NCBI GenBank assembly: GCA_028286645.1
Contig: JAQBRF010000004.1
Span: forward strand, 18,830 to 82,829
DNA: 64,000 bases
Direction of reading: 5' to 3'
Source of the DNA: Candidatus Nomurabacteria bacterium
Lineage (GTDB): Bacteria; Patescibacteriota; Minisyncoccia; Phycocordibacterales; UBA5272
Under the pieces are notes generated by a model. That model saw only the letters and a program-made list of their open reading frames with translations. It did no database searches and had not been told where the DNA came from. Position numbers and translations under genes: made by a program. This document shows positions 1,943 to 57,812 of the stretch, one piece after another; position 1 is the first letter of the stretch; each line of letters opens with the position of its first letter.

Positions 1943-4939
1943 TTGGAGTGTATGGCTATTTTACAAAATATCAAAAAAAGAAACGGGGAGTTTGTTCCAT
2001 TTGAACCAGATAAGATTGAAAAGGCTATAAAAAAAGCTTTTATTGCTGTAACTAAGGAAGATAAGGCGGCTGTTGCGAAACATATCACAGAGCTTGTAAC
2101 AAAAGAGCTTGAACTTGAAGCGATCACGCGGGATGGCTATATTCCGACTGTGGAACATACACAAGATATTATAGAACGCCATATCATGAGCGCTGGGTTC
2201 TTCGAAGTTGCGAAACGTTATATTATTTACAGATTTGAGCATACTAAGATGCGAGAGGAAAAGAAGCAGGAAATCTTGGAAAAGGTAGAAGAGGGTGGGA
2301 TTTTCATCACCAAGAGAAATGGATTTAAGGAAAGATTTGATATTGAAAAAGTCCGTCGCACTGTTCTTTATTCTGTTTACGGATACGAAAAAGAGATAAA
2401 TGTAGATCAGATACTTAATCAGATTAAGCTTGAAGTTTTCGAAGGAATGACCACGAAAGACATCACGAAAGCGCTGGTCATGACTGTGAGATCGACTATT
2501 GAGCAGGATCCGGCATATTCATACCTGGCATCTCGTTTAATGCTTAAGCAGATAAATGAAGATTTGATCGAAGGAAAAATTGATTATTCAAAAATGGATG
2601 ATCTATATAGACAAGCGTTCATTAATGGAATAAATAAAGGAGTAGACAGAGGAATCCTTGATGAAAGAATGAAGAATTTCGATCTTGAGAGATTGTCCCA
2701 GGCAATTATCAGATCCCGAGATGACTTATTTATGTACTTAGGAACTCAAACTCTTTATGAGAGGTATTTAGTTCGTGACCAAGAAGGAAATGGAAATATA
2801 ATTGAGCACATTCAAGGATTCTGGATGAGAACAGCGATGGGCGTAGCTCTTGCAGAAAAGGAACTAGAAAGAACATCCCGCGCCATCGAATTTTATGAAG
2901 TAATGTCTACACTTCGCTTCGTTCCATCTTCTCCTACTCTTTTCCATGCGGGAACTAAACATCCCCAGCTATCAAGCTGCTACTTAAATGTGGTAGAGGA
3001 TTCTCTGGAACATATCTTTAAAGTTTATGGAGATAATGCTCAGCTATCTAAGTTTGCAGGAGGAATCGGATCTGCGTGGACTAAGGTGCGGGCTTCCGGT
3101 GCTCTTGTTAAGAAAACCGGAATGAAATCAAACGGAGTCGTGCCATTTTTGAAAATCGCAAATGACGTAACTGTAGCTATCAACCGCTCAGGCCGCCGAC
3201 GCGGAGCCACCTGCGTGTATTTGGAAAACTGGCATTATGATATCGATGAGTTTTTGGAACTGCGAAAGAATACTGGCGACGAAAGAAGAAGAACTCATGA
3301 TATGAATACCGCTCTTTGGATTTCTGATGTATTTATGAAAAGAGTTCAAGATGACGGAGAGTGGACACTTTTATCGCCTGACGAATGTCCAGAGCTTACA
3401 GAAACTTTCGGATCTACATTTGAGGCTCACTACACGAGATACGAAAGAATGTGTGACGAGGGAGGCATAAGATTATTTAGGAAAATGAAGGCAAGAGATC
3501 TTTGGAGAAAGATGGTGACAATGCTTTATGAAACAGGGCACCCATGGATTACATTTAAGGATACTTCAAACATCCGTTCTCCTCAGGACCATGCGGGCAT
3601 CATCCATAACTCAAACCTTTGTACGGAAATTACTCTAAATAACAGCGAAACAGAAACAGCGGTATGTAACCTAGGCTCCGTTAACTATCAAAGGATGATA
3701 AACAATGGAAAGTTCGATGTAGATCTTGTAGCAACTACAGTGCGAACAGGAATGAGAATGCTCGATAATGTTATCGATGTAAACTTTTATCCCACTGTTG
3801 AAACTTCAAACTCAAACTTTAAGCATCGACCAGTAGGTCTCGGAATAATGGGTTTCCACGACGCTCTTTATATGCTTGATATAAATTTCGAATCAGATGA
3901 CGCAGTAAAGTTCGCTGATGAATCAATGGAGCTCATCTCATATCATGCGATTCTTTCTTCATCATTGCTTGCTCGAGAACGCGGCGCTTATGCATCATTT
4001 AAGGGAAGTAAGTGGGATCGAGGAATCTTTCCGGTAGATACTTTGGCACTTGTGGAACAAAACAGAGGAACTACCATTAACACTACGAAGACTTGCAAGC
4101 TTGATTGGACTCCAGTGCGCGATGCTGTTAAAGAATACGGAATGAGAAATTCAAACACCATGGCAATGGCACCGACTGCCACGATCTCAAATATTTCTGG
4201 ATGCATTCCATGTATTGAGCCGATTTATAAAAACATTTATGTTAAGTCAAACATGAATGGAGAATTTATCATCATAAACCCATACTTGGTAAATGATTTG
4301 AAAGCGCTTGGCCTATGGGACTTTGAAATGATCGGCATGCTTAAATATCATGATGGATCGGTTCAAGAAGTGTCATCTGTCCCAGATAACCTGAAAGCAA
4401 AGTATAAAGATGTGTTTCAGATTGATCCGCTCATGATGATTAAAATCGCAGCACACCGCGGCAAGTGGGTAGATATGTCACAGTCATTAAATATTTACTT
4501 TGCTGGTTCTTCCGGAAAGGAACTTGCATCCATCTACGAATATGCATGGAACATGGGACTTAAGACTACTTATTATCTGCGCTCCCTCGGCGCTTCTCAG
4601 GTAGAAAAGAGTACTGTAAACGCTGCAGAATTCGGAGCCACACATAAAAGAGGCGGGTCTCTTCCCGGAGCCACCCCAACAGTTTCTTCAGAATCAGTTC
4701 CAAGCATGGTTGTAAACTCAGTCCCTGCTCCTGTAATGAGCGCGGCTGTAACTCCGTCACAAGTTACGGAAGTCACGAAAGTTGCAGTTTCCACCCCACA
4801 AGTCGCCCCTCCTGTAATGTCTTCGGTAATGTCATCAATGCAAGTCGGGGAAAGAGTTTCAGTTTCGGTTGCAAAGCCCGGAGCAGTTACATACAATATA
4901 ACTAAGGTACCGGACGCTCATTGCGACGGCTGCGAATAA
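1943..4939 (+). CDS. nrdA: Ribonucleotide reductase class I large subunit with N-terminal ATP-cone and an unusually long Ser/Val/Pro-rich C-terminal tail ending in CDGCE
   Basis: ATP-cone at ILQNIKKRNGEFVPFEPDKIEKAI. Active-site region NLCTEI. C-terminal YYL motif. The nrdB gene is adjacent. Confidence 0.85.
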   Translation: MECMAILQNIKKRNGEFVPFEPDKIEKAIKKAFIAVTKEDKAAVAKHITELVTKELELEAITRDGYIPTVEHTQDIIERHIMSAGFFEVAKRYIIYRFEHTKMREEKKQEILEKVEEGGIFITKRNGFKERFDIEKVRRTVLYSVYGYEKEINVDQILNQIKLEVFEGMTTKDITKALVMTVRSTIEQDPAYSYLASRLMLKQINEDLIEGKIDYSKMDDLYRQAFINGINKGVDRGILDERMKNFDLERLSQAIIRSRDDLFMYLGTQTLYERYLVRDQEGNGNIIEHIQGFWMRTAMGVALAEKELERTSRAIEFYEVMSTLRFVPSSPTLFHAGTKHPQLSSCYLNVVEDSLEHIFKVYGDNAQLSKFAGGIGSAWTKVRASGALVKKTGMKSNGVVPFLKIANDVTVAINRSGRRRGATCVYLENWHYDIDEFLELRKNTGDERRRTHDMNTALWISDVFMKRVQDDGEWTLLSPDECPELTETFGSTFEAHYTRYERMCDEGGIRLFRKMKARDLWRKMVTMLYETGHPWITFKDTSNIRSPQDHAGIIHNSNLCTEITLNNSETETAVCNLGSVNYQRMINNGKFDVDLVATTVRTGMRMLDNVIDVNFYPTVETSNSNFKHRPVGLGIMGFHDALYMLDINFESDDAVKFADESMELISYHAILSSSLLARERGAYASFKGSKWDRGIFPVDTLALVEQNRGTTINTTKTCKLDWTPVRDAVKEYGMRNSNTMAMAPTATISNISGCIPCIEPIYKNIYVKSNMNGEFIIINPYLVNDLKALGLWDFEMIGMLKYHDGSVQEVSSVPDNLKAKYKDVFQIDPLMMIKIAAHRGKWVDMSQSLNIYFAGSSGKELASIYEYAWNMGLKTTYYLRSLGASQVEKSTVNAAEFGATHKRGGSLPGATPTVSSESVPSMVVNSVPAPVMSAAVTPSQVTEVTKVAVSTPQVAPPVMSSVMSSMQVGERVSVSVAKPGAVTYNITKVPDAHCDGCE

Positions 4940-5048: not shown

Positions 5049-6128
5049 ATGCCTCCACAATCCACAACACCCACTCCAAATACTTCGGCTACTCCGGTAA
5101 TTAACCGCGGGGCTAAGCGAGTAGATATAAATGAGCGCAAAATCATAAACGGCGGAGATGCTGATGTGATTCAGCTTTGGCCTATAAAGCACAAATTCGC
5201 ATGGGATGCGTATAATGTGGGAAATTCCAATCACTGGCTTCCTACAGAAATCAGCATGCAGCTAGACATCGAGCAATGGAAGTCCCAGACTCTTCTTACA
5301 GATGATGAGCGCCATGCTTTGCGAATGGTTTTAGGATTCTTTACTACCGCGGACTCAATAGCTGCGAATAATCTTGTTCTTGCATTCTATAAACACATCA
5401 CTTCTCCGGAAGCGCGCATGTATCTTCTTCGACAAGCTTACGAAGAAGCGATTCATACGCAAGCATATCAATACATCGTAGAATCTCTTGGACTTGATGG
5501 AACAGAAATCTTCAATATGTATCGCGAGGTTGATGCGATTTATAACAAAGAAGAATTTATTCTTTCCTTCAATCAAGGGATATTTAAAGACGACTTTAAA
5601 ACAGGGACATTTGAAAACGATCAGAAGTTCTTAGAAAACATGTGCGTGTTCTCGCTCATTCTTGAAGGCATATTCTTCTATTCATCTTTTGCTGTTATGT
5701 TTGGTTTCCAAAGACAAGGCAAGTTAACGGGTTCAGCTGAACAGATTCAGTACATCATGAGAGATGAAAGCCAGCATATGAACTTCGGAATTGATATGAT
5801 CAACACCATAAAGCAGGAGCAGCCAGAACTCTGGACCCCGCAGTTCGTAGAAAGAATAAAGGCACTAGTACGAAAAGCTGTAGAGCTCGAATACAAATAC
5901 GCCTGGGAAGTTTTCCCTACAGGAATATTTGGATTAAATGCTGAGGGATTCAAACAGTATATTGAATACATTGCTGATAGGCGATTAGGCCGCGTAGGAA
6001 TCGATCCACTATACAATGTATCAAATCCATTCCCATGGATGAGTGAAGCGGTGGATTTGAACAAGGAGAAGAATTTTTTTGAGACGAGGGTTACCGAATA
6101 TAAAACAGGTGGCACCTTGGATTGGTAA
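5049..6128 (+). CDS. nrdB: Ribonucleotide reductase class I small subunit (ferritin-like, di-iron)
   Basis: Motifs EEAIHTQAY, ILEGIFFYSSFA and RDESQHMNFG. Confidence 0.85.
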   Translation: MPPQSTTPTPNTSATPVINRGAKRVDINERKIINGGDADVIQLWPIKHKFAWDAYNVGNSNHWLPTEISMQLDIEQWKSQTLLTDDERHALRMVLGFFTTADSIAANNLVLAFYKHITSPEARMYLLRQAYEEAIHTQAYQYIVESLGLDGTEIFNMYREVDAIYNKEEFILSFNQGIFKDDFKTGTFENDQKFLENMCVFSLILEGIFFYSSFAVMFGFQRQGKLTGSAEQIQYIMRDESQHMNFGIDMINTIKQEQPELWTPQFVERIKALVRKAVELEYKYAWEVFPTGIFGLNAEGFKQYIEYIADRRLGRVGIDPLYNVSNPFPWMSEAVDLNKEKNFFETRVTEYKTGGTLDW

Positions 6129-6260
6129 TCTAATTACAAATATTATGACGCACTACTTTGTCGCCGATAAATTTTCCTCGGTCATCGTATTCCCTATACG
6201 TTTCTCTCGGAAAATTCCTCGTCTTCGCGTATTTCATTCAAAATATTTGAATTAGAAATT

Positions 6261-6941
6261 ATGATTAATTACACTAAAAGCTCTGATATTCATCCCTGCA
6301 TCCTTAATAAGGAAGATTTACAAGATTTAGTTGATTTAGTAATAAAAGATACTCCTAATTATGATAGTAGGGGATTATACATTCGCGGATCTTTTGGAGA
6401 AGTAGATATACATGAAAATAATCTTACGGATTTTTTACAACATAAAAATTTGCCAAAAACTCTAGATAATTTAACCATAAGTTACTCTTCTTATTTAAAG
6501 GACGCTGATCACAGAATAAGAATTGCTTTCTATAAATCATATATCATTCTAGATGTGTCTGGTTCCTCGGAGAGTTTTGTAAAAGGGAAATATAACCAAA
6601 TAAAGGATTTTCTAAAATCGAAAAGACCGTTTTTATGGTTTTTAAAATCGAAAATTGTTTATGGTTTACGAGGTGTACTCTTTGCGGTTGCCGGAACGGT
6701 TTATATGTACCTTATGATTAAATGGGTTAAATATGGCGTGAATCCTAATCTATTTGTTTCTTTAGGTGTAGTCATTTTATTGATAATAGATTATTTTATC
6801 TCGAGAATTGAATTTACTAGAATAAATATAAGCCCTCAAGAAAGTTTCTTAAATAAGCATGAAAGTTTCTTTAAGTATCTTGGGGTGGTAGCTGCTATCT
6901 TTACGATGATTGGTGTAATTTATCAAATTTTTCATTTGTAA
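6261..6941 (+). CDS. Hypothetical membrane protein
   Basis: Hydrophobic C-terminal segments. No known motif. Confidence 0.35.
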   Translation: MINYTKSSDIHPCILNKEDLQDLVDLVIKDTPNYDSRGLYIRGSFGEVDIHENNLTDFLQHKNLPKTLDNLTISYSSYLKDADHRIRIAFYKSYIILDVSGSSESFVKGKYNQIKDFLKSKRPFLWFLKSKIVYGLRGVLFAVAGTVYMYLMIKWVKYGVNPNLFVSLGVVILLIIDYFISRIEFTRINISPQESFLNKHESFFKYLGVVAAIFTMIGVIYQIFHL

Positions 6942-7786
6942 TATTTCTTCCCCACATAAAAATTCTTTTCGAGGAGGGTCGAGAGTTTTTTAGCTTTTGA
7001 TTTGTTTCTATTTATGATAAATCTAATTTTTGATGGAGACGAAACTATGGATTCAAGCTCTTTAATGTTTTCATTTGTAATAACTTTATTTTCTTTATAA
7101 AACTTTTCTATTTTATTAGTTATATCTTTATCATAACGGGCTTCGATAATATAATCACCAATTATATTTAATACAATACCTAAATTATTTGGTCTGTTTT
7201 CAAATAGGGGAGAATCCCTCATATAGTACTGAGACATATTTCCATCAAATTCTTTTGTAATCGCTCTATCAAGCGGAGTTTTATTCCCCGTAGTAAATAA
7301 ATATTTAATTTCTCGAGAATTCATATAGTCGCGTAGCGATAATTCTTCTTTCTTTCTTGCGATCATAAACCAGTTATGGGATGCATACGCATACCACCTA
7401 TCTATATTTGGTAAGGCGTCAAATAATACATAAAGCACATGGTTCCAGAAAGCATCCACCAAAATAGGATTTTTAAATTCATATGTAATCTTATCTCCAT
7501 CTCCCATTTGTAGAAAATGTCCATCCCCGCTTGGTGTTCTATATGCATGCTCAGCAAGGAGGGCAAACTTTTGAATATCTTGTAACCACGATTGATTTAA
7601 CACTGCTTCCTTTTTTGATACCAAAACTATCTGCTGATTTTTTAAAGTGCGAAGGGCTTTATATATTCCTTGGGAGGTTACATTTTTATTATCAAAATAC
7701 TTCAAAATATCCGCCGTCTTCTTTGGCCCGGTCTTTAAAAGTTCTACTATTTTTTCAGCAATTCCTGGGGTAGGAAAATGAGTCAT
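6932..7786 (-). CDS. Hypothetical protein with N-terminal winged-HTH-like region. Its C-terminal 20 aa are encoded by the R1 dispersed repeat
   Basis: ORF is preceded by a perfect TTGACA-18-TATAAT promoter (7818-7847, minus). The C-terminal KSKAKKLSTLLEKNFYV is the repeat translation. Confidence 0.45.
   Translation of the reverse strand: MTHFPTPGIAEKIVELLKTGPKKTADILKYFDNKNVTSQGIYKALRTLKNQQIVLVSKKEAVLNQSWLQDIQKFALLAEHAYRTPSGDGHFLQMGDGDKITYEFKNPILVDAFWNHVLYVLFDALPNIDRWYAYASHNWFMIARKKEELSLRDYMNSREIKYLFTTGNKTPLDRAITKEFDGNMSQYYMRDSPLFENRPNNLGIVLNIIGDYIIEARYDKDITNKIEKFYKENKVITNENIKELESIVSSPSKIRFIINRNKSKAKKLSTLLEKNFYVGKKYYK
6953..7004 (+). repeat. R1 dispersed repeat copy 1 (CACATAAAAAtTCTTTTCGAGGAGGGTcGAGAGtTTTTTAGCTTTtGATTT)
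   Basis: Four copies, 80-90% identical, at 6953, 10026, 10604 and 11517. Confidence 0.6.
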
Positions 7787-7817
7787 AAAACAAACTATTA
7801 GTTTAATTTGTTCTTAT

Positions 7818-7847
7818 ATTATACATAATAATTGCCATGTTTGTCAA
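7818..7847 (-). promoter_or_regulatory. sigma70 promoter TTGACA-N18-TATAAT for the 6932..7786 gene
   Basis: Minus-strand read: TTGACAaacatggcaattattatgTATAAT. Confidence 0.55.
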
Positions 7848-7868
7848 GTCTAATAGAATTGCGGGCAC

Positions 7869-9248
7869 ATGAATGAATTAATAAAACGACCTGTAGATCA
7901 AGGAATCTTGCCTCGCATATTAGGGAGGTTTGACCTAGTTACAATATATTTTACTCTTATATTCGGTTCTTATGGAGCCGCTCAATTAGCGGGAAAAGGG
8001 TGGGCAGGGATTTCCATGCTTTTACTCGCAGTTGTGACATTTCTCATTCCCTGCGCACTAGCTTCATATGAGCTTGGGACATTGTTCCCGGGAGAAGGAG
8101 GGATTTATATGTGGGCAAAAAAAACCCTTGGAATAAAGCACGGATTTATCGCAGGATGGTTATCGTGGGTCCCAGTTTTCTTACTTCTGCCTTTAATTTC
8201 TACGACAATAGTTGCCCATATTCAATTTATCTTTTCTATAAAGTTTCCTCTGTGGTATCAAGTAATACTCCAAGTGGCTGTGATATGGATTATATATTTA
8301 ATCTCAATTAAGAAATTAAAGTTTTCACAGGGATATGTAAGAATTCTCTCAATTGTTGCATTTGCTACTGCAGGGATTGCATATGGTGTAGCTATGATTA
8401 AAGGCCACTCTGTAAATCCTATAAATAGAGAAATATTTTCACTCGATTTAAATAAATATGGGACCCTTTATTCTGCTGCCATTTTATGGCTGCTTGGCGT
8501 AGAAGTTCCATATAACATGGGAGACGAATTCAGTGAACATAAAAAAACTGCAGGATCTATGATTTTGTGGGGGTCACTTGCACTAGTTATTGCATATATA
8601 TTTGGGATTATCGGAGTACTTTATACAACTTCGCTTGATCAGGTAAACCCGACTATTGGTATCGCTCAGGGAGTCGCAAATGTCTATCCAATACTTGGAA
8701 TTGTTGTAGCTTTTTTAATTTGTCTCGCAGTTTCTTCGCAGGGAGTTGCATATATGAATGCTTATTCTCGGCTTTTATTTGTATCAGGCTTAGAAAAATG
8801 TTTACCAGAATCGTATGGGAATATAAGTAAAAATAAAATTCCGACAAAAGCAATGCTTGTACAGGTAATAGGCGCAACTATTGTATTAATTATATTTTCC
8901 ACACAAGCGAACTTAGTGATTGCATTTAATCTTTATCTCGCAGCGCTTGTTGCTGTTTGGTGTGCATCATTATTCTATATTTATATTGGAGTGGTACTTG
9001 CCAGAAGGAACTTAAAGCATGAATATGAAGAAAGGGGAGAAAATATATGGAAGCTTCCATTTGGAAAGATTGGGTTATGGTTTACAGCAATATGGGGATT
9101 TTTCTTTAATATGGTCGCGATTTATTATGTATTTGCAAACCCCTGGGTTGATGGAATAAGTAAAAGTTCGTGGATGTTGTGGCTATCCATCATATCTTTC
9201 GTAGTGGTTGCTTCTGGAACAGTTGTATTTAAATTAAATAGAAAATAA
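7869..9248 (+). CDS. APC-superfamily amino acid permease (12 TM)
   Basis: Hydropathy profile and N-terminal pattern ...GSYGAAQLAGKGWAGISMLLLAVVTFLIPCALASYELGTLFPGEGGIY. Confidence 0.5.
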   Translation: MNELIKRPVDQGILPRILGRFDLVTIYFTLIFGSYGAAQLAGKGWAGISMLLLAVVTFLIPCALASYELGTLFPGEGGIYMWAKKTLGIKHGFIAGWLSWVPVFLLLPLISTTIVAHIQFIFSIKFPLWYQVILQVAVIWIIYLISIKKLKFSQGYVRILSIVAFATAGIAYGVAMIKGHSVNPINREIFSLDLNKYGTLYSAAILWLLGVEVPYNMGDEFSEHKKTAGSMILWGSLALVIAYIFGIIGVLYTTSLDQVNPTIGIAQGVANVYPILGIVVAFLICLAVSSQGVAYMNAYSRLLFVSGLEKCLPESYGNISKNKIPTKAMLVQVIGATIVLIIFSTQANLVIAFNLYLAALVAVWCASLFYIYIGVVLARRNLKHEYEERGENIWKLPFGKIGLWFTAIWGFFFNMVAIYYVFANPWVDGISKSSWMLWLSIISFVVVASGTVVFKLNRK

Positions 9249-9255
9249 AAAAACC

Positions 9256-9285
9256 GGGCAAGATCCGAAGATCTCGCCCGTCCTG
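9256..9285 (-). terminator. Strong intrinsic terminator (CGGGCgAGATC-ttcg-GATCTtGCCCG + T7 on the minus strand). It abuts the stop of the convergent plus-strand permease gene
   Basis: Seen in sequence. Confidence 0.6.
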
Positions 9286-9365
9286 CTTGTTGCTTATTAT
9301 AGCACATTTTCAGGGTTTTGTGCCGTTGCTCGACCGGCTGACAGCCGAAACTCGTCAAGCAATGT
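9256..9365 (-). ncRNA. Candidate small RNA (~110 nt) delimited by a TTGACA-16-TATACT promoter (9372-9399, minus) and the terminator at 9256-9285
   Basis: Promoter and terminator bracket a region with no ORF. Identity unknown. Confidence 0.3.
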
Positions 9366-9424
9366 ATATCCAGTATAGCAAATCCACAGGATTTGTCAAG
9401 TCCTATAAAAAATCTTTATTTTAA

Positions 9425-9439
9425 TGGGTTTGATATACT
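9425..9439 (+). promoter_or_regulatory. Extended -10 promoter (TGaTATACT) for the HAD-like gene, inside a conserved ~80-bp element shared with 11741-11815
   Basis: tttGATATACT lies 26 nt upstream of ATG 9472. Confidence 0.4.
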
Positions 9440-9471
9440 TCCTTTATGAAATATAATCAGTCTTGTTTCTA

Positions 9472-10014
9472 ATGAAAAAAGCGTATAAAAAGATAATATT
9501 TTTTGATGGAGATGGAACGATTTGGTACCCAAAGAAAACAAAGCGCACCGTAGAGCCACACTTAATATATAAAGATGTGTCTATAAGAGATAATAACCAC
9601 CATCTGCACTTAATGCTCACTCCGAAAGTCATAGAAACTCTTCAAGAATTAAAAAGACGCGGAGTTCTGATTGTTTTAGTTTCTACGTATCCACATCAAA
9701 AGAAAGAGGCAGATTTAATTTTAAATAAGAAGGTAAAGCATTTTAACTTAGAGAAAGTTTTCGATGGTATATATACAGCAAGAGACTATCAAGAGGGGAA
9801 GGGTGAAATAATAATGAATGTCTTAAAGAAATATAAACTGCCTAAAGCAAGAGCTGTTATATTAGGAGATAGTTACAGAAGAGACTATTTATCTGCGAAA
9901 CGAATAGGTGTGGACGCTTACTTAATCGAGACTATATATATGAAAGGAAGGCCAAGGGCAAACAATGAAAAATATATTATAAAAGAAGTAGAGGATTTAC
10001 TCAATATAATTTAG
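9472..10014 (+). CDS. HAD-superfamily phosphatase-like protein
   Basis: DxDGT motif (IIFFDGDGTIW) and a later GDS..D motif. Confidence 0.5.
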   Translation: MKKAYKKIIFFDGDGTIWYPKKTKRTVEPHLIYKDVSIRDNNHHLHLMLTPKVIETLQELKRRGVLIVLVSTYPHQKKEADLILNKKVKHFNLEKVFDGIYTARDYQEGKGEIIMNVLKKYKLPKARAVILGDSYRRDYLSAKRIGVDAYLIETIYMKGRPRANNEKYIIKEVEDLLNII

Positions 10015-10025
10015 ACCCACTTCCT

Positions 10026-10070
10026 CACATAAAAATTCTTTCGAGGAGAGAGGAGGTTTTTTAATTTTGG
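10026..10070 (+). repeat. R1 repeat copy 2 (more diverged)
   Basis: Seen in sequence. Confidence 0.5.
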
Positions 10071-10162
10071 AAAATATTATAAAACAATTTTCTTGACTTT
10101 TGTTTTAAATATGGTTGAATTATGGAAAGCTTCACTTGTTCAATCTTTTAGAGAGGTCCTGT

Positions 10163-10543
10163 ATGCTCAGCTTAATCAATACGTTTGTCTGGTACGGGCT
10201 CTGCCTATTTCTGGTGGGACTGATCTCTTACACGATCCTGGGCAGGGAGTGGAAAGAAGGAACTTCCGACTGGTCTACTTACGCCTGCCTCATCCCAAGC
10301 TGTGTGGCGCTGGTTGCGTTTATTGTTACCCCGTTTTTCATAGAGATAGGGGTGACACGCTGGCCGGAGTTTGACACGGCAGATGTTCGTCATTTGGCGC
10401 TGTTCTGGTGCACAAATGAACTACCACCCGAGCAGCTCATCTTCGCGTTGGGTGTCATTGGAATGGCCGTAGCGGTGGGAGTGATCTTTACCGCTACCAT
10501 CGCCCGGATTGGCTCCCTCCGATCGAGAGAATGCGGCGACTAG
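10163..10543 (+). CDS. Hypothetical small membrane protein, high-GC cassette
   Basis: SD AGAGAGG 6 nt before the ATG. 3-4 TM. GC about 55-60%. Terminator at 10572-10608. Confidence 0.45.
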   Translation: MLSLINTFVWYGLCLFLVGLISYTILGREWKEGTSDWSTYACLIPSCVALVAFIVTPFFIEIGVTRWPEFDTADVRHLALFWCTNELPPEQLIFALGVIGMAVAVGVIFTATIARIGSLRSRECGD

Positions 10544-10571
10544 GTCGATCAGTGGGTAAGAAAGATCAGGA

Positions 10572-10608
10572 CAGGGCCTGCGACAGAGATGTCGCGGGCC
10601 TATTTTTT
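10572..10608 (+). terminator. Intrinsic terminator (GGGCCTGCGAC..GTCGCGGGCC + T6)
   Basis: Seen in sequence. Confidence 0.5.
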
Positions 10609-10658
10609 ACATAAAAACTCTTTTCGATGAGAGTGGAGAATTTTTTAGCTTTGGATTT
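10604..10658 (+). repeat. R1 repeat copy 3
   Basis: Seen in sequence. Confidence 0.6.
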
Positions 10659-10662
10659 ATAT

Positions 10663-10880
10663 AAAAAAGAAATAGGGACGCGATCTTCCGATCGCGCCCC
10701 ATGGGGGTTTAGTGGTTCTATGCGATAACCCCCTTTATCGGTCCTCAGACACACGTCTGCATCTGCCGTAATGGTCAGTCTCCGTAGACCGTCCGTTCCT
10801 GTCCTAAATTACGGTTAAGGAATTATAGTGAGAATGAGATTTTCGGCCTATATTGCACCGAGACGGAACTCATCCCCAAA
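10663..10880 (-). ncRNA. Candidate small RNA (~210 nt): promoter TTGACA-17-TAATAT (10887-10915, minus) to terminator hairpin 10675-10700 + T-run
   Basis: Only tiny ORFs inside. Promoter and terminator as stated. Confidence 0.25.
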
Positions 10881-10941
10881 GAACAGCTGCATATTTATAT
10901 TAACTCCGGCGGTGGGATTTGTCAATAGGTGCGTATTTTAG

Positions 10942-10970
10942 TAAAAAAAAGACGGCTCGGGTGAGCCGCC
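10942..10970 (-). terminator. Intrinsic terminator for the 11023..11442 gene (8-bp stem + T8)
   Basis: Minus-strand read: GGCGGCTCacccGAGCCGTCtttttttt. Confidence 0.5.
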
Positions 10971-11022
10971 TGGGAAGGGGGAGAAGGGAGAGGGGATTGG
11001 GGAACTAGGGATGTTGGACGAG

Positions 11023-11442
11023 TTACACCCAGAAGTATTTCATCGCGTTAAGCTCGGCGTGGATTTCGCCAGCGTACTTGCAGGCAAGGTCGATGAAATC
11101 TTCGTCGTTCGGAGCGAGGGCGAGCATCTGAGGAAGACCGCATTGGAAAAATGCGACGAGCGCCTCCAATCGGGATCGACGAGCATTGCGCTCACTCTCT
11201 TTTTCCAGATCTTCATCGACGTCCTTGGTCACCTCATCGATGTATTTCTCGTAGGCACTGGCGGCGACCACGAACTCCAGATTCATCTCTGTGCCGAATT
11301 TCATCGCGATGTAAGCGGCTTCCGCGGGAGCCAGGAAGTTGACGAACTGATTCCCGAATTCTTCTCTGAATGCCCTCGCCATCCTTTTCAGCTCTTCTTC
11401 GTTGCGAGGTGCGCCTTTCTCTTCGTATGCTTGGTTAACCAT
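11023..11442 (-). CDS. Hypothetical acidic protein, high-GC cassette
   Basis: SD AAGGAGA before the ATG, a terminator downstream, and GC-rich sequence. Confidence 0.45.
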   Translation of the reverse strand: MVNQAYEEKGAPRNEEELKRMARAFREEFGNQFVNFLAPAEAAYIAMKFGTEMNLEFVVAASAYEKYIDEVTKDVDEDLEKESERNARRSRLEALVAFFQCGLPQMLALAPNDEDFIDLACKYAGEIHAELNAMKYFWV

Positions 11443-11516
11443 ACTCTTCTCCTTGAGGGTTGTGCAATCATTAAAACACTACAATTCTTTTGTGAAAAAG
11501 TCAATCTTCTAACTTA

Positions 11517-11573
11517 TTCACATAAAAACTCTTTTCGAGGAGGGTGGAGAGCTTTTTAGCTTTGGATTTTGGA
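11517..11573 (+). repeat. R1 repeat copy 4
   Basis: Seen in sequence. Confidence 0.6.
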
Positions 11574-11739
11574 AAATAAAAAGGGCGGGACCACTTGGGA
11601 TCCCGCCCGCTTTGCTACGTTCTCTGCGTGAGGTTCGCAGTCATTCGTAAAATGGGTTTAGTTTCACCTGGGGGCCTCAAGCTTTCCCAGTAGATGGCCT
11701 CAAGAGCGGCGGATGTTTCACCCGTCATTGCCCAGCCAT
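11572..11739 (-). ncRNA. Candidate small RNA (~170 nt): promoter TTGACA-16-TATACT (11746-11773, minus) to terminator GGGCGGGA..TCCCGCCC + T-run (11571-11609)
   Basis: No ORF inside. The promoter spacer carries a CATATGCT/AGCATATG palindrome. Confidence 0.3.
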
Positions 11740-11818
11740 ATGCTCAGTATAGCATATGTAAGGAGTTTGTCAAGTAGTACAAAACCTTTATTTTAAAGGG
11801 TTTTGATATACTGCAAAT

Positions 11819-12076
11819 ATGGGAAACTTATACGAAAATGGGAAGGTAAAAATAAATGCACAATCACTCGTTCTAATCATCCAGGCAGTTGACAGCGAAA
11901 TTCAGAGATTGAAGCGCACGCCGACTGACGAAATGGTGCTCGAGGATTATCAATTTTTAGAAGATTATATTAATGTAGCGGAAGAACTAGAAGAGATCTA
12001 TAAAGAAGCACAAAAGGAAGTAATGAATCTTCCTGTTTACGATAGGCTCGTAGATAAAAAACCAAAGAGTGCATAA
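11819..12076 (+). CDS. Hypothetical small acidic protein. Likely leaderless mRNA, since the extended -10 TGATATACT ends 6 nt before the ATG
   Basis: AT-rich gene with the TGaTATACT element at 11804-11812. Confidence 0.4.
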   Translation: MGNLYENGKVKINAQSLVLIIQAVDSEIQRLKRTPTDEMVLEDYQFLEDYINVAEELEEIYKEAQKEVMNLPVYDRLVDKKPKSA

Positions 12077-12466
12077 ATAGCTTTTCACAATGAAATTGGT
12101 ACTTATACTTAAGATATAATTATAAATATATGGAAAATACACAAAGGGGAAATTTTGGTCCAGGAGGACGAGGTGAAGATAAATATAGATTTCCGCCAGA
12201 AGTAAACGAGGGTGGCTTACAAAAACCAGCCATTGATATAGGCGAGGAATTTAGTCATTTAAACGGCATTGTTCCTTAAGGGTTTACGGGAAATAATACG
12301 GAAACAGAGGAAGATCCAGTATCTTCTGATGTGGCATATATTGAAGGACCAGACGAATATAGGAAGAGAGGATCAATGTAATTGACTTCACCCGTTTAAA
12401 CTGGCAGAGTGAAGTGGAATAACCAGAAATAAATATCTGGTTCAATAACATTGCGAGGATAAAGAC

Positions 12467-12874
12467 ATGGAAGCGGGAATTTTTGCAATTATTTCGTTGT
12501 TTACGCTCTTCCGTTTCGGAAGGACGTTAGGGCGAATATATGTCGGGGCGGAGGATTGGCTGGGTGTTCTCACGTGGATTTTCGGAACAGCCTCCTTCGT
12601 GCTTTCAACTCAAAGTCTGATAGTTGTGATATGGGAGCTCCTAGGCAGCTTTTCACCTTTCTACATCGGTGATAAAGGCCTGTTGTACTGCCTTTCTTGG
12701 GGATGGATGGCTCCGTGGAAAGGGCTGGACATTTTCGTGGCCCAGAGTATTATCCTGGGTGCATTAACTATCTCTTGCACGATGCTTTTGGGGGCTATCT
12801 CGTATTACGCTGTACGGGGACTGCCAGTGCGTGAGCCTTTTGTTTCCAAAGATTCCAATTTCGTTGTACGTTGA
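12467..12874 (+). CDS. Hypothetical membrane protein, high-GC cassette
   Basis: SD GAGGA before the ATG. About 4 TM. Confidence 0.4.
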   Translation: MEAGIFAIISLFTLFRFGRTLGRIYVGAEDWLGVLTWIFGTASFVLSTQSLIVVIWELLGSFSPFYIGDKGLLYCLSWGWMAPWKGLDIFVAQSIILGALTISCTMLLGAISYYAVRGLPVREPFVSKDSNFVVR

Positions 12875-13000
12875 TCCGCGGCGCGCAAGCGTTGCGGTTT
12901 TATTATTGATTTGACTTAATTAGATATAGCTGGCAGAGTATGATTGAGCCACTGGCTTTGATTAGCCGGTATTTATGAATCACTTACAGGAGGAAGTTTC

Positions 13001-13396
13001 ATGGATGAGTATGGATGGTTGTGGGGTCTTTCGTTTATGGGCAATTTCTTCATCCTTATCGTGGTTGCGAGAGCGGTATGGGTGAAATCGCAGAAAAGGA
13101 TTGATGTTGGCATAGCCTTTGCCATCGCATCAATTATCGCTTTTGCGGGGATTACGTACTGCGCGGCCTACGTGCTTTTCTGGGCCGGCTACGCACTTAT
13201 GCCGCACGACATCACCAAGGAGATGCTCGAGGCGGTGGCAAATTTCCAGTTCTCGCATCTGACTGGTCGTGACCTTACGATATCGATCGCGCTCGGATTG
13301 ATCGCCCTAGGGATCAGCTTGGCGATCGTGATCTCGGTCATAAGGGGGGCCATAAAACAGCCGTCGAGAATCGGCAAACCAATCAGGGTCACATAG
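13001..13396 (+). CDS. Hypothetical membrane protein, high-GC cassette
   Basis: SD AGGAGGA before the ATG. About 4 TM. Terminator CCGCGGCGAACAAGCCGCGG + T at 13405-13440. Confidence 0.45.
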   Translation: MDEYGWLWGLSFMGNFFILIVVARAVWVKSQKRIDVGIAFAIASIIAFAGITYCAAYVLFWAGYALMPHDITKEMLEAVANFQFSHLTGRDLTISIALGLIALGISLAIVISVIRGAIKQPSRIGKPIRVT

Positions 13397-13623
13397 GTGT
13401 GACGAGGGCCGCGGCGAACAAGCCGCGGATTTTTTATATAAAACAAGCACCGCCCACAATAGACGGCACTTTCGGTTCTTTCATAATTAGTTTACCATTA
13501 ACTTCTTCTTTAATTTGATCGTGTGGATAGATTTTCCCTTATCCTTTGACTCGAAAAATCAGGAGGAGTACGCTTATAAATGAGCAGCACAAACATGTTC
13601 TAGCACTCGGAGGAGTGAGCAAT

Positions 13624-13923
13624 ATGGGAAAGTCGGATAAAACGGCCCTGGCAACAGGTTTGCAGTTTCTCAGCAATGTGAGGGTCATCAACAGGAACTT
13701 CGTAGGTGATCCGCCAAGCCTTCAGCCTGGGAAACCTGGGATTGAATTTTTCCTTGAATTTCTCGCAGCGCGGAAGGTCACCTTCGAAATGTGCGAGATC
13801 ATCCCGGGGAACGGAGGCAGAGAAATCACCATCCGCGCTACGGGCTGCCCGGAGGCGCTCGAGCTCCTGGGTGAAAGCGGCGAAGGACGCCGTCATGATT
13901 GGGCTTTTCGAGTCACGCATTGA
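13624..13923 (+). CDS. Hypothetical protein, high-GC cassette (start moved to the internal Met that carries a GGAGGAG SD)
   Basis: GGAGGAGtgagcaatATG. A strong bidirectional terminator lies at 14003-14047. The overlapping minus-strand ORF 13600..13998 is the alternative. Confidence 0.3.
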   Translation: MGKSDKTALATGLQFLSNVRVINRNFVGDPPSLQPGKPGIEFFLEFLAARKVTFEMCEIIPGNGGREITIRATGCPEALELLGESGEGRRHDWAFRVTH

Positions 13924-14070
13924 GTTCGAAAGCCCGGACAGAAGCTGATATGGCCAGGTCTCTGCAAGCGAAAGCTGCAGAGACCTTTTATTTGACATAA
14001 GAAAAACAAGAGCGTAAATTAAAATAGTACGCTCTTGTTTTTCCTAGAGCCCTAACTCAAGGAGGATATT

Positions 14071-14319
14071 TTGCCTGAAAGCACCTTACCGAAAGTTCCG
14101 AGAAGTGCGCCTGAACATCCCGATGACGTCGAGGTCTCACACGAAGGGGAGTGGATCGCCCTGTTATTTCATCCGAAAATGATTCTTGAGCCGACAAGCT
14201 ACACATTCGAGGTGGACTCATCCTCTAAGCTGCAAGTTTTCGTCGGCGGATGGCTGGTCGTTGAGTTCGAAAGCCGGGAATGGGTAGTATTTCGTACGTC
14301 CAAGCAGGCTGCCGCGTAA
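14071..14319 (+). CDS. Hypothetical protein, high-GC cassette (TTG start after AAGGAGG)
   Basis: SD and spacing. Terminator at 14337-14367. Confidence 0.35.
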   Translation: MPESTLPKVPRSAPEHPDDVEVSHEGEWIALLFHPKMILEPTSYTFEVDSSSKLQVFVGGWLVVEFESREWVVFRTSKQAAA

Positions 14320-14435
14320 TAAGCGGAACTTGTACTCCGTGGCTCCGCAAGGAGCCACGGTTTTTCTTTGACCTAGAAGTTGCTTTGTAGTACAGTTATA
14401 AAGATTTATTGTTCAACTAACCAGAGGAAACTCAA

Positions 14436-14747
14436 GTGGACGACGACATGATGGACCGTTTCGGAATTGTGGACAAGGGAGGTTGGTCAGATGGAGAGGG
14501 GTGCCTGTCAAACCGGGATCCTGAGGCTCATCAATTGATCGAAGTCGGTCAGTGCAGGTTTGAAAAACTGGTCGATAACGTTCCTAAAGAGGAGTGGATA
14601 GCCCTCGATGCTTTCATCCACGAGTGCGGATTCCCGCTTGCGTCGACCAAGGTTCTGATAACCCCTGCTGACCTGAAGGGGCGACTCTATATACGATGCG
14701 GAGAGAAACAGATTTGTCTCATAACAGGCAAATGGCGGTATGCGTAA
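14436..14747 (+). CDS. Hypothetical protein, high-GC cassette
   Basis: Terminator CTGGGAGC..GCTCCCAG + T8 at 14756-14790. Confidence 0.35.
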   Translation: MDDDMMDRFGIVDKGGWSDGEGCLSNRDPEAHQLIEVGQCRFEKLVDNVPKEEWIALDAFIHECGFPLASTKVLITPADLKGRLYIRCGEKQICLITGKWRYA

Positions 14748-14865
14748 TACCACACTGGGAGCAAGGAAAGCTCCCAGGTTTTTTATTTTTATATTGACTG
14801 GACATATTTAAGGCGCTAAAGTTATAAAGATTGGTCTTTTTGCAATGAACCTTTGTGGAGGATTT

Positions 14866-15420
14866 ATGACGAAACCAATTCTTACGATTGTCCCGCAGCT
14901 CGAAGTAAGAAGGGGTGGAGGAGAACCTCCTCCGCTCCTTGATAAACAGCTTCGGGTGGATGAGACTCCGCCAGCGGCGGCTGATCAAGCCGAGGCAGAG
15001 CCTGATTTCCAAGGAAAGGCAACATCAAGCCCTGACGACGTCCAATCCTTGGGCGATGTTTCAGAGGCCAGTGATGCAGAATCGGCTCAGGTTTCTCCCG
15101 GCGAATTGTGGCGAAAAGATCGCGAGGAAGCATGGAGACTTTACCAGGAAAGTAAAGCGCGCATCAGCCTATCGGATCCGATAAAGTCAGGGATTCCAGC
15201 GGAGTCGGTGATCATTTATTGGACTGACTCGGAGCCGCGGACAAAAATGACCGGCGAAGATGTGATCAATGAAAGTCTCGAGCGCGTAGAAGGAGATCGG
15301 TTCGTAGAGATCAGCACTACAGGAGAATCGAAAAAAGGTGTATGCTTCATTTTCACCTATTCTCACCGGTTCCCGTTTTTCAGGTTTTTCGCACCTGAGG
15401 TCTGCGAAATAAAAAAATAA
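14866..15420 (+). CDS. Hypothetical acidic low-complexity protein, high-GC cassette
   Basis: GGAGGAtttATG. Terminator CCGCGGCTGGAGGGCCGCGG + T-run at 15431-15462. Confidence 0.4.
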   Translation: MTKPILTIVPQLEVRRGGGEPPPLLDKQLRVDETPPAAADQAEAEPDFQGKATSSPDDVQSLGDVSEASDAESAQVSPGELWRKDREEAWRLYQESKARISLSDPIKSGIPAESVIIYWTDSEPRTKMTGEDVINESLERVEGDRFVEISTTGESKKGVCFIFTYSHRFPFFRFFAPEVCEIKK

Positions 15421-15554
15421 GACAGAAATTCCGCGGCTGGAGGGCCGCGGTTTTATTTTTTCACATATCCTTTTTTGAATGTTGATGGTTATAGTATATT
15501 AATTAAGTACTGTTCTGTTTTTTCTTAACCGTTTCATTTTTAATAGAAGAGAAA

Positions 15555-15740
15555 ATGTCGGCAATAAAGAGACCTAAGTCCCCAGTTTTTCCTGAGGGAG
15601 ACGTGCTTCATATCGACGGACGGCTCCTCCAAACGCATAATGGACACAAAGCTACGCCTCCCCCAAAAGGAGGGGATGATTTTCCTGCTGTGCGAGTTTC
15701 TCCAAGCGGTCAAAGTGTCTACCGTTTCCGCCCGAAATGA
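15555..15740 (+). CDS. Hypothetical small protein, high-GC cassette
   Basis: Followed by the terminator GTGCGCAGCGCC-tac-GGCGCTGCGCAC + T7 at 15751-15786. Confidence 0.3.
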   Translation: MSAIKRPKSPVFPEGDVLHIDGRLLQTHNGHKATPPPKGGDDFPAVRVSPSGQSVYRFRPK

Positions 15741-15822
15741 AAGAGGCCAAGTGCGCAGCGCCTACGGCGCTGCGCACTTTTTTTAACTCGCCCTTAAATA
15801 CTCATTTGATATACTAACAACT

Positions 15823-19888: not shown

Positions 19889-19944
19889 AGGACCTCCTTA
19901 AAATTGTGCGGTTGTCTCCTCCTCAAATAAGGAGAAGAAATACA

Positions 19945-19980
19945 AATGCCAGTATATCATATATACCAGCATTTGTCAAT
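19945..19980 (-). promoter_or_regulatory. sigma70 consensus promoter TTGACA-17-TATACT with an inverted-repeat spacer (copy a of the promoter cassette)
   Basis: Minus-strand read: TTGACAaatgctggtatatatgaTATACT. Confidence 0.55.
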
Positions 19981-29639: not shown

Positions 29640-32600
29640 ATGAAAAAAGGTATTAAAAAATGTGGAGCAAAAGTTTGGGTTATTTTTTTTACATTTATTT
29701 TAATTTCATCTTTTTCTGCTAATAGCTCAGTTCATGCAGCCGAAAGCAAAATTCTCAATTTCCCGGTCTATCCATTACAAAGTGTAATAAGATTTATTTC
29801 ATTTAAAACATTTTCTTTGTATTCTGTTTCATCGCATGCATATGCCCTAGCTCATAACCTGCCACAATTTGCGCCAACGAAACTTTCAGCCATACCATCG
29901 ATTAAAACTGACGAGTTATCGCCTCTTTTAAATATAGGAAATAGTGCCAGCCAAAATACTGTCATATTATCAGATGCTGTCAATGAGCTTGGCTGCGAGT
30001 TAGTTAAATTTATTAGGATTAATTTATGCGCAGGTGAGAGTAACTTTGTGACGCCGAAATTAGCGATGAATAAAGTAGATAATAATGATTTAGTTATCGA
30101 TTCTGCTATTCCACGGCAAATTGCTATAGTAGGAGAAGAACTTCATTCGCCGCTTATTGAGTCAATAAAAAACTTTGCTTTAAATTTAAATACTGCAACT
30201 GTGCCAAAGCAGCAACCTTATGAAGAAATCCAAAATGATATTCCAGATCTCAAATTTAACTTTCCGCGCTTAGCAGAGTTTAGCCTTCTTCCTTTTAAGC
30301 AATATTCATCATTTGCAACAGGAGATAATAAAGCAAGCGCTCAAGGAATTTCGGTTCCAGTGAAGAAGAGTACACTGCCATTTTTAGACAGATTATCACT
30401 TTCTGTTTTCTGTAAAATAAAATCTTTATCAGGAGTCGTTGATGAAAACAGATGCAGTTATGATTCGCTTGCGGGAAACTTTTTAATAAACAATTTAGCA
30501 AATTTAAATGATGGCAATACTCAGCCATCAACACTAAATAGTAGTGGGGCCACTTCAACCTCAACAGGCTCCTCTAACACTCCTCAAGACACTTTTACAA
30601 ACTCTGGAAATATTTCAAAACCGGTTTATATAACTCAGTATCTCACTAAGTATATTACTCTTGCGGGTTCTCCGGGTCCTAAAGGTCCTTCTGGTGTAGA
30701 TGGAAAAGATGGCCTAGATGGAATGAGTGGTCAGAATGGAGCTAACTCACAAGGAGGATTCGGAGGATTTATTAATCCATCAAGTTCTTATGTTGCGCCG
30801 ACTCCGTATGTGGCGCAAAGCCTTGTGGGGATTTCTACTATTGGATATTTGCGTGATACTACGATTGAGTATGCGAAGTTTAATTATGGTACAGCTAATA
30901 ATCTAAGCCTGATAAGCCCTACTGTAGATAACGGCGTGTTTAACGGAACGAATATATTTAATGGAGGCGTACGATTTAATGATAATGTAGACATAAACAT
31001 CCTAACTGCCACCTCGAGTAATTTCCTAAATTCAAGCACGACAAATTCGTTTGCAAATAATTTTTCTGCAGTAAATTCTATACTTGGGGATGCAATCATA
31101 ACAAATGCGAATGTAACTAATTCGACTACGACAAATCAGTCTACAACTAATTTAAATCTTACAAACGGTACTACAAGTAATCAATTTATTAATAATCTTG
31201 CGGTAATTAATTCCACAACGACAAATGCGAGCACCACAAATAGCTACATAAGTAATTTATTAAATGATAATAGTACCACTACCAACTTGGTAGTTACAAA
31301 TGCAAGCACAACGAATGCGACTACTACGAATTCTTTTATTTCTAAATTATGGTCCACTCTTGCTAACATTACTGATCTAATAATTGGCAATGCCACAACA
31401 ACTAATCTATTTGCTGCGAATGCGACTTCCACCAACTTCTTTTCAACTCTTGCCCGCATCACGGGTCTCACAGTAGATAATTCAGTTACAACTAATGCAA
31501 CGACTACAAATGGCTACATATCTAATTTAACTAATGATAATGGAAATATCGGAAATCTTGTCGTAACTAATGCAAGCACAACTAATGGCACCACGACAAA
31601 TAGTTACATAGCAAATTTAGCAAATACAAACGCGGTGATTACCAATGCTACGACCACAAATTCTTTCATTGCACGATTGTGGTCCACTTTAGGCGATATA
31701 ACAGGATTAAATACAGTTAATTTGACCGCTACGAATGCTACTAGTACAAATTTCTTTTCAACCCTTGCCCGCATCACGGGTCTTACTGTCGATAATTCCG
31801 TTACGACTAATGCAACCACAACAAATAGTTTTATTGCAAATCTGACTGCAGATAATGCTGTAATTAACAATATCAATTTTGGCAGCGCTTCATCTACAAA
31901 CTCGACGTCGACAAATGGTTTTATTGCAAACCTAACGATGAATAACGGAACATCAACGAACTTCTTTACTCAAAACCTTTCCGTTGGAAATACAAATGTT
32001 AGCGGCAATCAAACAATTAATGGTACGTTCACTGTTTTAGGTACTACCACACTCGGAGCAGCAACGACAATTGTGGGGAATATACTCTTGGGGACAAGTA
32101 CCTCGAATTTTATAACAGTAAATGGCCTATTTAATTCTCATCTGGTTCCCGCGCAAAATATTACATACGATCTGGGTTCCCCATCATTTTATTATAGGAC
32201 TTTATATGTTGATACCATTACCGCAAATACCGTTTCTGCTGTTAGCTCTACGATCAATGGAACAACAAATAGTTCATTTTCAATAAACGCAGATAATGTT
32301 TCCGCAGACGCAGAAGATTCTACCCTTGTCTTTTTTAGAGGATTAGTTACTCCGAATGCAGTTATTAGGTGGAATTCCATTTCGAAGAGATTGGAGGCGA
32401 ATATGTCTATTAATGTTATGAATGAAACTCCTGTAACCGGTTCCACCACTTTTTCAGTACAGGGAGGGGCTGGTCAGGGAACAACACCGTTATTTAAGCT
32501 GCTAGATAATTCTGAGAACACTCTTTCATACTTTGACCAAAATGGCTCATTAGGAATTGGGACTAGTACGATCACCTCAGGGGCGAAGGTGGATGTATGG

Positions 32601-57731: not shown

Positions 57732-57812
57732 TTGCAGAAGCGGGAGTCAAGGAAATAAAAAGCCGCCCCTCGTCCGAAGAAAAGGTTTGGCTTTTCTCAG
57801 AACGAAGAGCGG

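Follow-up and report, generated by a model that had tools for sequence, protein, structure and literature searches.

Promoter-to-terminator units without open reading frames as possible junction cassettes of a hyperplastic island in Candidatus Nomurabacteria

What is the role of three strong promoters that lead, through DNA with no evident gene, straight to strong terminators? This question is raised by a 64,000-nucleotide (nt) stretch of DNA (hereafter the window; positions 18,830 to 82,829 of contig JAQBRF010000004.1), part of a 514-kb, chromosome-sized contig in the metagenome-assembled genome of a Candidatus Nomurabacteria bacterium, a member of the Patescibacteria or candidate phyla radiation (CPR). 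The original prediction for this DNA placed three such units, here termed A, B and C, on the minus strand between positions 9256 and 11739 and read them as candidate small RNAs (sRNAs), either novel or divergent forms of housekeeping RNAs. With about even confidence, we regard them instead as regulatory or junction cassettes that lack an open reading frame (ORF), that belong to a hyperplastic island of small genes, and that yield short transcripts free of sequence constraint.

All three units were present, at positions within about 10 nt of those first described: unit A runs from 9399->9250, unit B from 10925->10663 and unit C from 11773->11572. To score promoters, we counted matches, out of 12, to the sigma-70 -35 and -10 hexamers. 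The consensus promoters that had been claimed proved to be near-consensus sigma-70 promoters: TTGACA-16-TATACT with a TG-extended -10 both in unit A (9372..9399, minus strand, 11/12) and in unit C (11746..11773, minus strand, 11/12), and TTGACA-17-TAATAT in unit B (10897..10925, minus strand, 10/12). At the other end of each unit lies the predicted strong hairpin followed by a T-tract, with 11 pairs in unit A (9280->9255), 11 in unit B (10700->10675) and 10 in unit C (11608->11583). These G+C-rich stems of 10-11 bp were called by the terminator scan on the minus strand only, and direct reading of the sequence placed the T-tracts on the minus-strand side only. Unit A's terminator lies just 7 nt beyond the stop codon of the convergent permease gene, yet its T-tract, too, is on the minus strand only. 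The expected RNAs would thus be about 116 nt long for unit A (9250..9365; an 83-nt body with a GC content of 48%, hairpin and T-tract), 228 nt for unit B (10663..10890; 188-nt body, GC 49%, terminator and T-tract) and 168 nt for unit C (11572..11739; 129-nt body, GC 53%, terminator and the T-tract TTTTTATTTTCC). Units A and C have the T-tract TTTTTATTTTC in common, and all three terminators start with GGGCGNGATC; this pattern has 4 matches in 64 kb, 3 of them the units' terminators, against 0.24 expected, although it was picked post hoc, after inspection of the data, and functional convergence is possible.

Such units are rare in the window. Only 11 promoters in the 64 kb score 11/12, and units A and C supply two of them. 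When we searched for promoters of at least 10/12 with a strong terminator on the same strand within 450 nt, we obtained six cases. Units A, B and C make up three; the others are explained by ORFs, one pair being internal to ORF135, one belonging to the gene ORF82, and one being internal to a 75-amino-acid (aa) ORF led by a Shine-Dalgarno (SD) sequence. A, B and C are therefore the sole ORF-less pairs of this kind in the window. The claimed absence of a credible ORF also held: no unit contains an ORF with a GGAG/GAGG-type ribosome-binding site, and the longest complete ORF within them encodes 37 aa (unit C, ATG start, 11728->11615), lacks an SD sequence and has no Pfam match. On these grounds we rejected small-protein genes as the identity of the units. 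This ORF stops 7 nt ahead of the terminator, and its frame is open back to the transcription start. The units overlap no neighbouring gene, and their promoter and terminator pairs are not explained by neighbouring protein genes; downstream of A and B there is no gene on the same strand, and these two units run instead into the convergent permease gene (A) and ORF142 (B). Together, these features suggest that A, B and C are self-contained non-coding units that are probably transcribed.

The setting of the units is an island of 5.7 kb (island 1, 10081..15800), in which about ten small, GC-rich cassettes of ORFans lie, in both orientations, between native HAD and ATP-grasp genes. Units B and C are inside this island, and unit A is just outside. 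The island ORFs have a GC content of 48-54% (the exception being ORF85, 37%), whereas the native neighbouring genes have 32-39% and the intergenic background has 35%; at 48-53%, the unit bodies resemble the island ORFs. Each island cassette has its own strong terminator, and most have a recognizable promoter and SD sequence; by direct reading, GGAG or GAGG precedes most island genes, ORF61 having merely a weak one. No island 1 ORF gave a Pfam or PHROG match above threshold. ORF85 gave a sub-threshold Pfam match to a family resembling Tsi2, an immunity protein of the type VI secretion system (E 3e-4), and ORF139 stood alone in an index of 5.8 billion proteins, with a single distant homologue (P0049, 43% identity) recovered by exhaustive HMMER search. 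The surroundings are those of a chromosome and not of a phage: the island proteins have zero PHROG matches, and RNR, UvrC, DnaE, RNase J, RNase HII, NusB and RNase III are encoded around the locus. An assembly chimera was ruled out, because L001, an independent Logan assembly of SRR13312974, is 100% identical to window positions 6080-14062, which shows that this region is not an assembly artefact. At NCBI, ORF139 and ORF85 correspond to JWN37_407 and JWN37_408.

To ask which parts of the units are conserved, we turned to L006, a 6.6-kb contig from the Joint Genome Institute (JGI) that was found through P0049 and is identical over 3817 nt to a Logan contig, L007. L006 is the sole syntenic relative found, and all statements on conservation of the units rest on it. 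It carries a syntenic island, bordered on one side by an ATP-grasp gene (69% nucleotide identity) and containing small cassettes in an array as well as homologues of both ORF85 (70% aa identity) and ORF139. It also contains three units of its own. U1 (promoter 5352-5380, TTGACA-17-TATACT, followed by body, T-tract and a copy of the repeat D9, described below) lies exactly where unit C does in the window; U2 (promoter 4286-4314) ends in a terminator like that of unit A, followed by D9; and U3 consists of a TG-extended -10, 12 nt and a terminator, with practically no body. U1 and U2 have the only L006 promoters that score 11/12, and the four units A, C, U1 and U2, from two genomes, do not differ in their -35 and -10 hexamers.

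We compared unit C with U1 by alignment scores against shuffles, expressed as z. The promoter block was strongly conserved (61/74 aligned positions identical, z 12.6), as were the T-tract together with D9 (55/66, z 13.4) and the stretch from D9 to the start of ORF139 (51/60, z 7.8). In contrast, the transcribed body, including the hairpin, showed no similarity (z -0.8). Similarly, blastn of the window against L006 aligned the flanks of unit C at 70-76% identity, the ATP-grasp gene at 69%, and the divergent promoter block of the type found beside A and C at 76.5% over 98 nt. Because the coding DNA is just ~69% identical, non-coding stretches that still align are likely constrained, and those that do not are unconstrained or replaced. 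Gene order was also kept: unit C, D9c and ORF139 correspond to U1, D9 and the ORF139 homologue, and U2 and D9 likewise precede a 121-aa gene. No counterpart in L006 was found for the ~0.87 kb (~10081-10945) comprising unit B, D9b and the ORF142 cassette, and in this one comparison the difference is bounded by D9 copies and T-tracts. Body length in the two genomes spans 12 nt (U3) to 188 nt (unit B). More distant ORF85 homologues, on contigs L008 and L009, were discarded as possible carriers, there being no unit upstream of the gene.

The conserved promoter block is divergent. Beside unit A (9366..9448, both strands) it comprises the near-palindrome AAACCCWTTAAAATAAAGRTTT and a plus-strand TG-extended -10 (family D18); a block of ~82 nt with such a near-palindrome is common to A, C and U1, the copy between unit C and ORF85 lying at 11740..11821 on both strands and being the one identical to L006 at the 61 of 74 positions given above. 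The ORF85 ATG follows 6 nt after the TG-extended -10 (TGATATACTgcaaatATG, window 11806-11821), and this spacing suggests that the ORF85 mRNA would be leaderless. In the homologous block of unit A (9434-9448) an ATG stands at the same spacing from the -10, but just an 8-codon ORF lies behind it. ORF139 (11023-11442) encodes a protein only 43% identical to the product of L006 5637-6050; the last 117 nt of the gene are 76% identical, and aligned columns of the region upstream of it agree at about 85% (about 74% by blastn). From the sequence comparison, ORF139 would appear to keep its ends while its centre evolves fast, as in immunity-type or diversifying loci.

The repeat at the junctions, D9, is a 50-69 nt sequence with four copies in the window, all in a single orientation. 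One is the source: the last ~23 codons of ORF284 (6948..7016, minus strand). The other three mark island 1 junctions and are copies of the last ~50 nt of that gene. D9c (11514..11582, minus strand) directly follows the T-tract of unit C, is 92% identical to ORF284 over 51 nt and decodes as KSKAKKLSTLLEKSFYVNK; D9b (10603..10671, minus strand) directly follows the T-tract of unit B and is 88% identical over 50 nt; and D9a (10022..10080, minus strand), which is degenerate, lies beside the HAD stop and is 93% identical over 30 nt. These copies, 88-93% identical to the resident ORF284 end, still decode its peptide. That ORF284 is the source follows from the conservation of the D9-encoded C-terminal peptide (KAxKLSxxFEKxFYF) among 14 ORF284 homologues. 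L006 has D9 copies at 6107-6159, 5507-5558 and 4402-4455; there, a T-tract and the terminal D9 come directly after the terminator of the ORF139 homologue, and D9a is orthologous to this terminal copy (21/21 positions identical). Folded as single-stranded DNA, D9 copies reached only -3.6 to -5.1 kcal/mol (z -0.1 to -0.5), so they are not attC-like; we rejected D9 as an integron attC site on this ground and because it is homologous to a coding 3' end. All D9 fragments lie upstream of intact ORF284 on its strand, a geometry unlike simple integration into the 3' end of a gene. Viral, metagenome and genome contigs, when scanned for D9 with exact or degenerate patterns, gave no match.

ORF284 itself (6932-7786, minus strand; JWN37_404 at NCBI, 100% identity) encodes a 284-aa TrmB-like regulator, with no Pfam domain in its family. 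The AlphaFold model (mean confidence score, pLDDT, 86) has a winged helix and a PLD-like domain, with TrmB and NucT/Nuc as the best PDB matches; its predicted resemblance to TrmB-type regulators led us to discard ORF284 as a recombinase. It is divergently paired with an amino-acid permease gene (7869-9248) in every relative inspected, and the two look like a conserved regulator-transporter pair of CPR bacteria. Synteny through ORF284 homologues led to no further units: on contigs L002 and L004 (<=64% identity) the pair is kept, with neither units, nor extra D9 copies, nor island. A scan of genome contigs for ORF284 found nothing. Within the window, tblastn with ORF284 recovered D9 fragments alone (residues 262-280), and the units are accordingly not remnants of ORF284 paralogues.

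We then asked whether the RNA of any unit could be recognized. Searched with Rfam 15 at gathering scores, the whole window gave only a group I intron at 62521-62804 and nothing in the units. At E<=10, positions 9000-12100 gave nothing credible: no signal recognition particle (SRP) or 4.5S RNA, 6S RNA, RNase P RNA or transfer-messenger RNA (tmRNA), and no riboswitch or leader family in the units. Rfam families were likewise absent from L006, and ARAGORN found no tmRNA. The notion that the units might be known elements, or fragments of them, thus failed, no family having matched. With the terminator removed, the bodies were barely more structured than shuffles (z -2.0 for A, which has a stable 5' hairpin, -1.0 for B and -1.15 for C). 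Nor are the units paralogues of one another: only their promoters and terminators are alike, and Smith-Waterman scores among the three bodies were not significant against shuffles.

Matches to other sequences were also sought. The units have no long matches elsewhere in the window, and their complementarity to 16 local translation-initiation regions and to neighbouring mRNAs (window and L006) did not exceed shuffled controls. Antisense regulation of neighbours was rejected because duplex energies were no better than those of shuffles, and a type I toxin-antitoxin system because the units overlap no neighbouring gene and show no complementarity above chance. Six-frame tblastx of the bodies against all ORFs of the window, L006 and L008 gave chance-level matches only, which excluded the units as remnants of other island genes. 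Exact or degenerate pattern scans, run on viral and metagenome contigs with pieces of unit B and on viral contigs alone with pieces of the other two units, gave no match, and blastn of 9200-15800 against plasmids and phages returned nothing.

Together, these results suggest that selection keeps the start and the stop of a unit, and not its RNA: the flanks are conserved in L006, the body is dissimilar, unit B is absent, and U3 is nearly bodiless. From this comparison, both promoters (that of the unit and the next one), the T-tract, D9 and some form of terminator hairpin appear to be maintained. Since the ends are kept and the RNA sequence is not, we read A, B and C as regulatory or junction cassettes. 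Since the body sequence is not kept and varies from 12 to 188 nt in length, housekeeping RNAs and conserved riboregulators are ruled out. And since the bodies are GC-rich and island-like, they would be acquired cargo or remnants and not old neutral spacer. A second island in the window (57.3-62.3 kb), with like cassette architecture but other junction repeats, and situated beside a tRNA gene, also counts in favour of this reading.

We propose that RNA polymerase initiates at the near-consensus sigma-70 promoter of each unit, would transcribe roughly 85-190 nt of GC-rich, island-like, untranslated DNA, and would be released at the dedicated minus-strand intrinsic terminator. The units would thereby supply a strong outward or divergent promoter and an insulating terminator at cassette boundaries, and their conserved ends, together with D9, probably act as homology for the gain, loss and swapping of cassettes. 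The transcripts themselves would most likely be strain-specific, non-conserved by-products or cargo.

Several points weigh against regarding the units as cassettes with unconstrained transcripts. Invariant strong promoter hexamers are unusual for junk RNA and suggest a role either for the RNA itself or for its transcription. Selection for a stable RNA could also account for GC-rich bodies in an AT-rich genome. At ~69% coding identity, any unconstrained sequence would be expected to be unalignable, and "not conserved" amounts to a single comparison with one related island. The reading does not account for D9, a fragment of a regulator gene, as a junction mark, and no recombinase domain was found in the subset of ORFs across the window that was scanned with Pfam.

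Alternatively, the units could be strain-specific small regulatory RNAs, acting in trans or in cis, whose bodies are functional island cargo swapped between strains; such an RNA might be an immunity or antisense determinant against a mobile element, or it might regulate targets at other sites of the genome. We consider this a possibility to be taken seriously, albeit a tentative one. Strong conserved promoters, dedicated terminators, the lack of coding potential, bodies that differ in GC content from native intergenic DNA, conserved ends around a variable middle, and the stable 5' hairpin of unit A are all what one would expect of it. However, the body is not conserved at the orthologous site (unit C versus U1), U3 is nearly bodiless, and the bodies of B and C fold no better than shuffles; moreover, complementarity does not exceed shuffled controls, whether it is sought in neighbouring mRNAs or in any stretch of the window, and the viral, metagenome, genome, plasmid and phage collections scanned hold no related sequence. 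Of the idea that these are novel sRNAs, then, what stands is that the units are self-contained, non-coding and probably transcribed; with no body conservation in L006, they would be strain-specific at most.

It is also conceivable, though unlikely, that the units are scars of decayed mini-genes of the promoter-SD-ORF-terminator type, in which an internal deletion took the ORF and left the promoter, a remnant and the terminator. Their architecture and composition match those of the neighbouring cassettes; in unit C just 7 nt separate the end of the 37-aa ORF from the terminator, and the frame is open to the transcription start; U1 retains AGGAGG and a 15-codon GTG ORF, and U3 is a promoter and a terminator alone. 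Yet the units hold the best promoters and terminators of the region, which is unexpected for decaying genes; the six-frame comparison with the window, L006 and L008 linked no body to any ORF; and three cases fall within 2.5 kb, with none in the second island or elsewhere in the window. We give still less credence to an interchangeable-RNA expression locus, in which an exchangeable, GC-rich, non-coding insert is framed by a conserved, very strong promoter and by a conserved T-tract with the att-like D9. If this were true, the locus might act as an RNA-based determinant of immunity or competition that is swapped between strains with hypervariable ORFan mini-genes.

That the units are 5' leaders or attenuators, with a terminator conditionally read through into the next minus-strand gene, is improbable, and the idea could apply to unit C only, through ORF139. 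Unit C, D9c and ORF139 do lie on one strand in an order that is kept in L006 (by U1, and also by U2, D9 and the 121-aa gene), and the short SD-led ORF of U1 could be a leader peptide; but A and B lack a downstream gene on their own strand, the region upstream of ORF139 is conserved in its own right, matches to riboswitch or leader families were absent, and an antiterminator alternative was not seen on reading the sequence. Finally, divergent housekeeping RNAs (SRP, 6S, RNase P or tmRNA) of a reduced genome are effectively refuted and, like small-protein genes, very improbable, for although the lengths fall in the 4.5S and 6S range and unit C has its 37-aa ORF, no Rfam family matched even at E<=10, body structure is weak, the unit C body is not conserved and unit B is absent in L006, the locus is a variable island of ORFans, and the 37-aa ORF lacks both an SD sequence and a Pfam match.

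The architecture of the second island (57300-62350, minus strand) matches that of island 1. Small GC-rich ORFs with SD sequences, terminators and strong TTGACAAAT...TGATATACTGG promoters form an array there, and repeated junction sequences (families D11-D14) lie between them. This island is directly downstream of a tRNA gene (62472-62866, minus strand) that is split in the anticodon loop by the group I intron (62804->62521). The 5' exon spans about 62821->62787, the 3' exon ends at about 62472, and the gene has its own promoter, TTGCCA-16-TATAAT, at 62866->62839. ARAGORN misses this tRNA as it stands and recognizes it after in silico removal of the intron; the anticodon depends on the exact splice site. 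Copies or fragments of the tRNA 3' end occur within the second island: GATCCCTACCCACGGAGCA is found again at about 62341->62322 and, in degenerate form, near 60600 and 59965.

Elsewhere in the window, a strong promoter on the minus strand at 19942-19979, TTGACAAATGCTGGTATATATGATATACTGGCATTTGT, is a perfect palindrome that was also scored as a 16-bp hairpin, and it belongs to one family with promoters at 58228 and 61665. Numerous internal repeats (families D1-D8 and D10), in which GNVGIGTTTP-like motifs recur, make up an ORF of 4084 aa at 29640-41894 that presumably encodes a giant surface protein.

Almost nothing is known of non-coding transcription, or of how flexible islands are built up, in the uncultured CPR/Patescibacteria with their tiny genomes. 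Should units A, B and C prove to be expressed, they would rank among the group's first concrete sRNA candidates. The architecture is the more robust result: within 64 kb there are two islands of self-contained, GC-rich ORFan mini-genes with repeated junction modules, including copies of gene 3' ends, and, in the comparison of island 1 with its one syntenic relative, the junction modules are kept while what lies between them changes. T4-type phages have hyperplastic regions of a similar kind, and the architecture offers a testable model for the acquisition and shuffling of novel genes in reduced genomes. There is also a caution for genome scans, in that a perfect promoter and a perfect terminator without an ORF are not alone evidence of a conserved RNA gene.

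How do the units compare with known systems? Like the orphan sRNA genes of islands and prophages, they have their own promoter, a Rho-independent terminator, a length of 100-230 nt and no ORF, and they lie in horizontally acquired, strain-variable DNA; unlike those genes, they have no conserved seed or structure, no target among the mRNAs compared in the window and L006, and a body that is unconserved at the orthologous site. Integron cassette arrays, and the arrays without integrase termed CALINs, share with this locus the small, mostly ORFan cassettes, a junction element that recurs in a single orientation, a strong promoter that heads the array, and gain or loss of cassettes at the junction repeat. 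However, D9 is a protein-coding 3'-end fragment with no attC-like hairpin, and island 1 cassettes, which point in either direction, have promoters and terminators of their own; among the Pfam-scanned ORFs of the 64 kb, a subset of all ORFs, no integron integrase was found, although a CALIN does not require one.

Phage morons, associated with the names of Juhala et al. (2000) and Hendrix et al., are said to be autonomous promoter-gene-terminator insertions of atypical GC content. The units resemble them in being autonomous, with their own sigma-70 promoter and intrinsic terminator, in a composition unlike that of the surrounding genome, and, in the case of unit B, in presence or absence between relatives. 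They differ in that A, B and C have no ORF and no phage genes nearby; the neighbouring island 1 cassettes do fit the promoter-gene-terminator description.

The closest described system, by analogy, is that of the promoter-early stem-loop (PeSL) cassettes of T4-type phages, in which a strong sigma-70 promoter is combined with a terminator stem-loop in ORFan-rich hyperplastic regions; these cassettes shield genes from one another and allow modules to be shuffled by recombination (Arbiol et al. 2010, PMC2839356). The units differ from PeSL cassettes in sitting in a CPR bacterial chromosome and not in a phage; in having a promoter and a terminator that do not overlap but are separated by a variable transcribed body of 12-190 nt; and in that several junctions also carry a chromosomal gene 3'-end fragment, D9. 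Mini-circles and recombination belong to the PeSL system; for the present units, recombination is a proposal. PeSL stem-loops insulate neighbouring genes, a role that we propose here for the units' terminators. PeSL modules delimit the insertions, deletions and replacements by which related phage genomes differ, and here, in a single comparison, one ~0.87-kb difference from L006 is bounded by D9 copies and T-tracts. The units are, like PeSL cassettes, short repeated modules that join a strong sigma-70-like promoter to a terminator stem-loop amid small ORFans.

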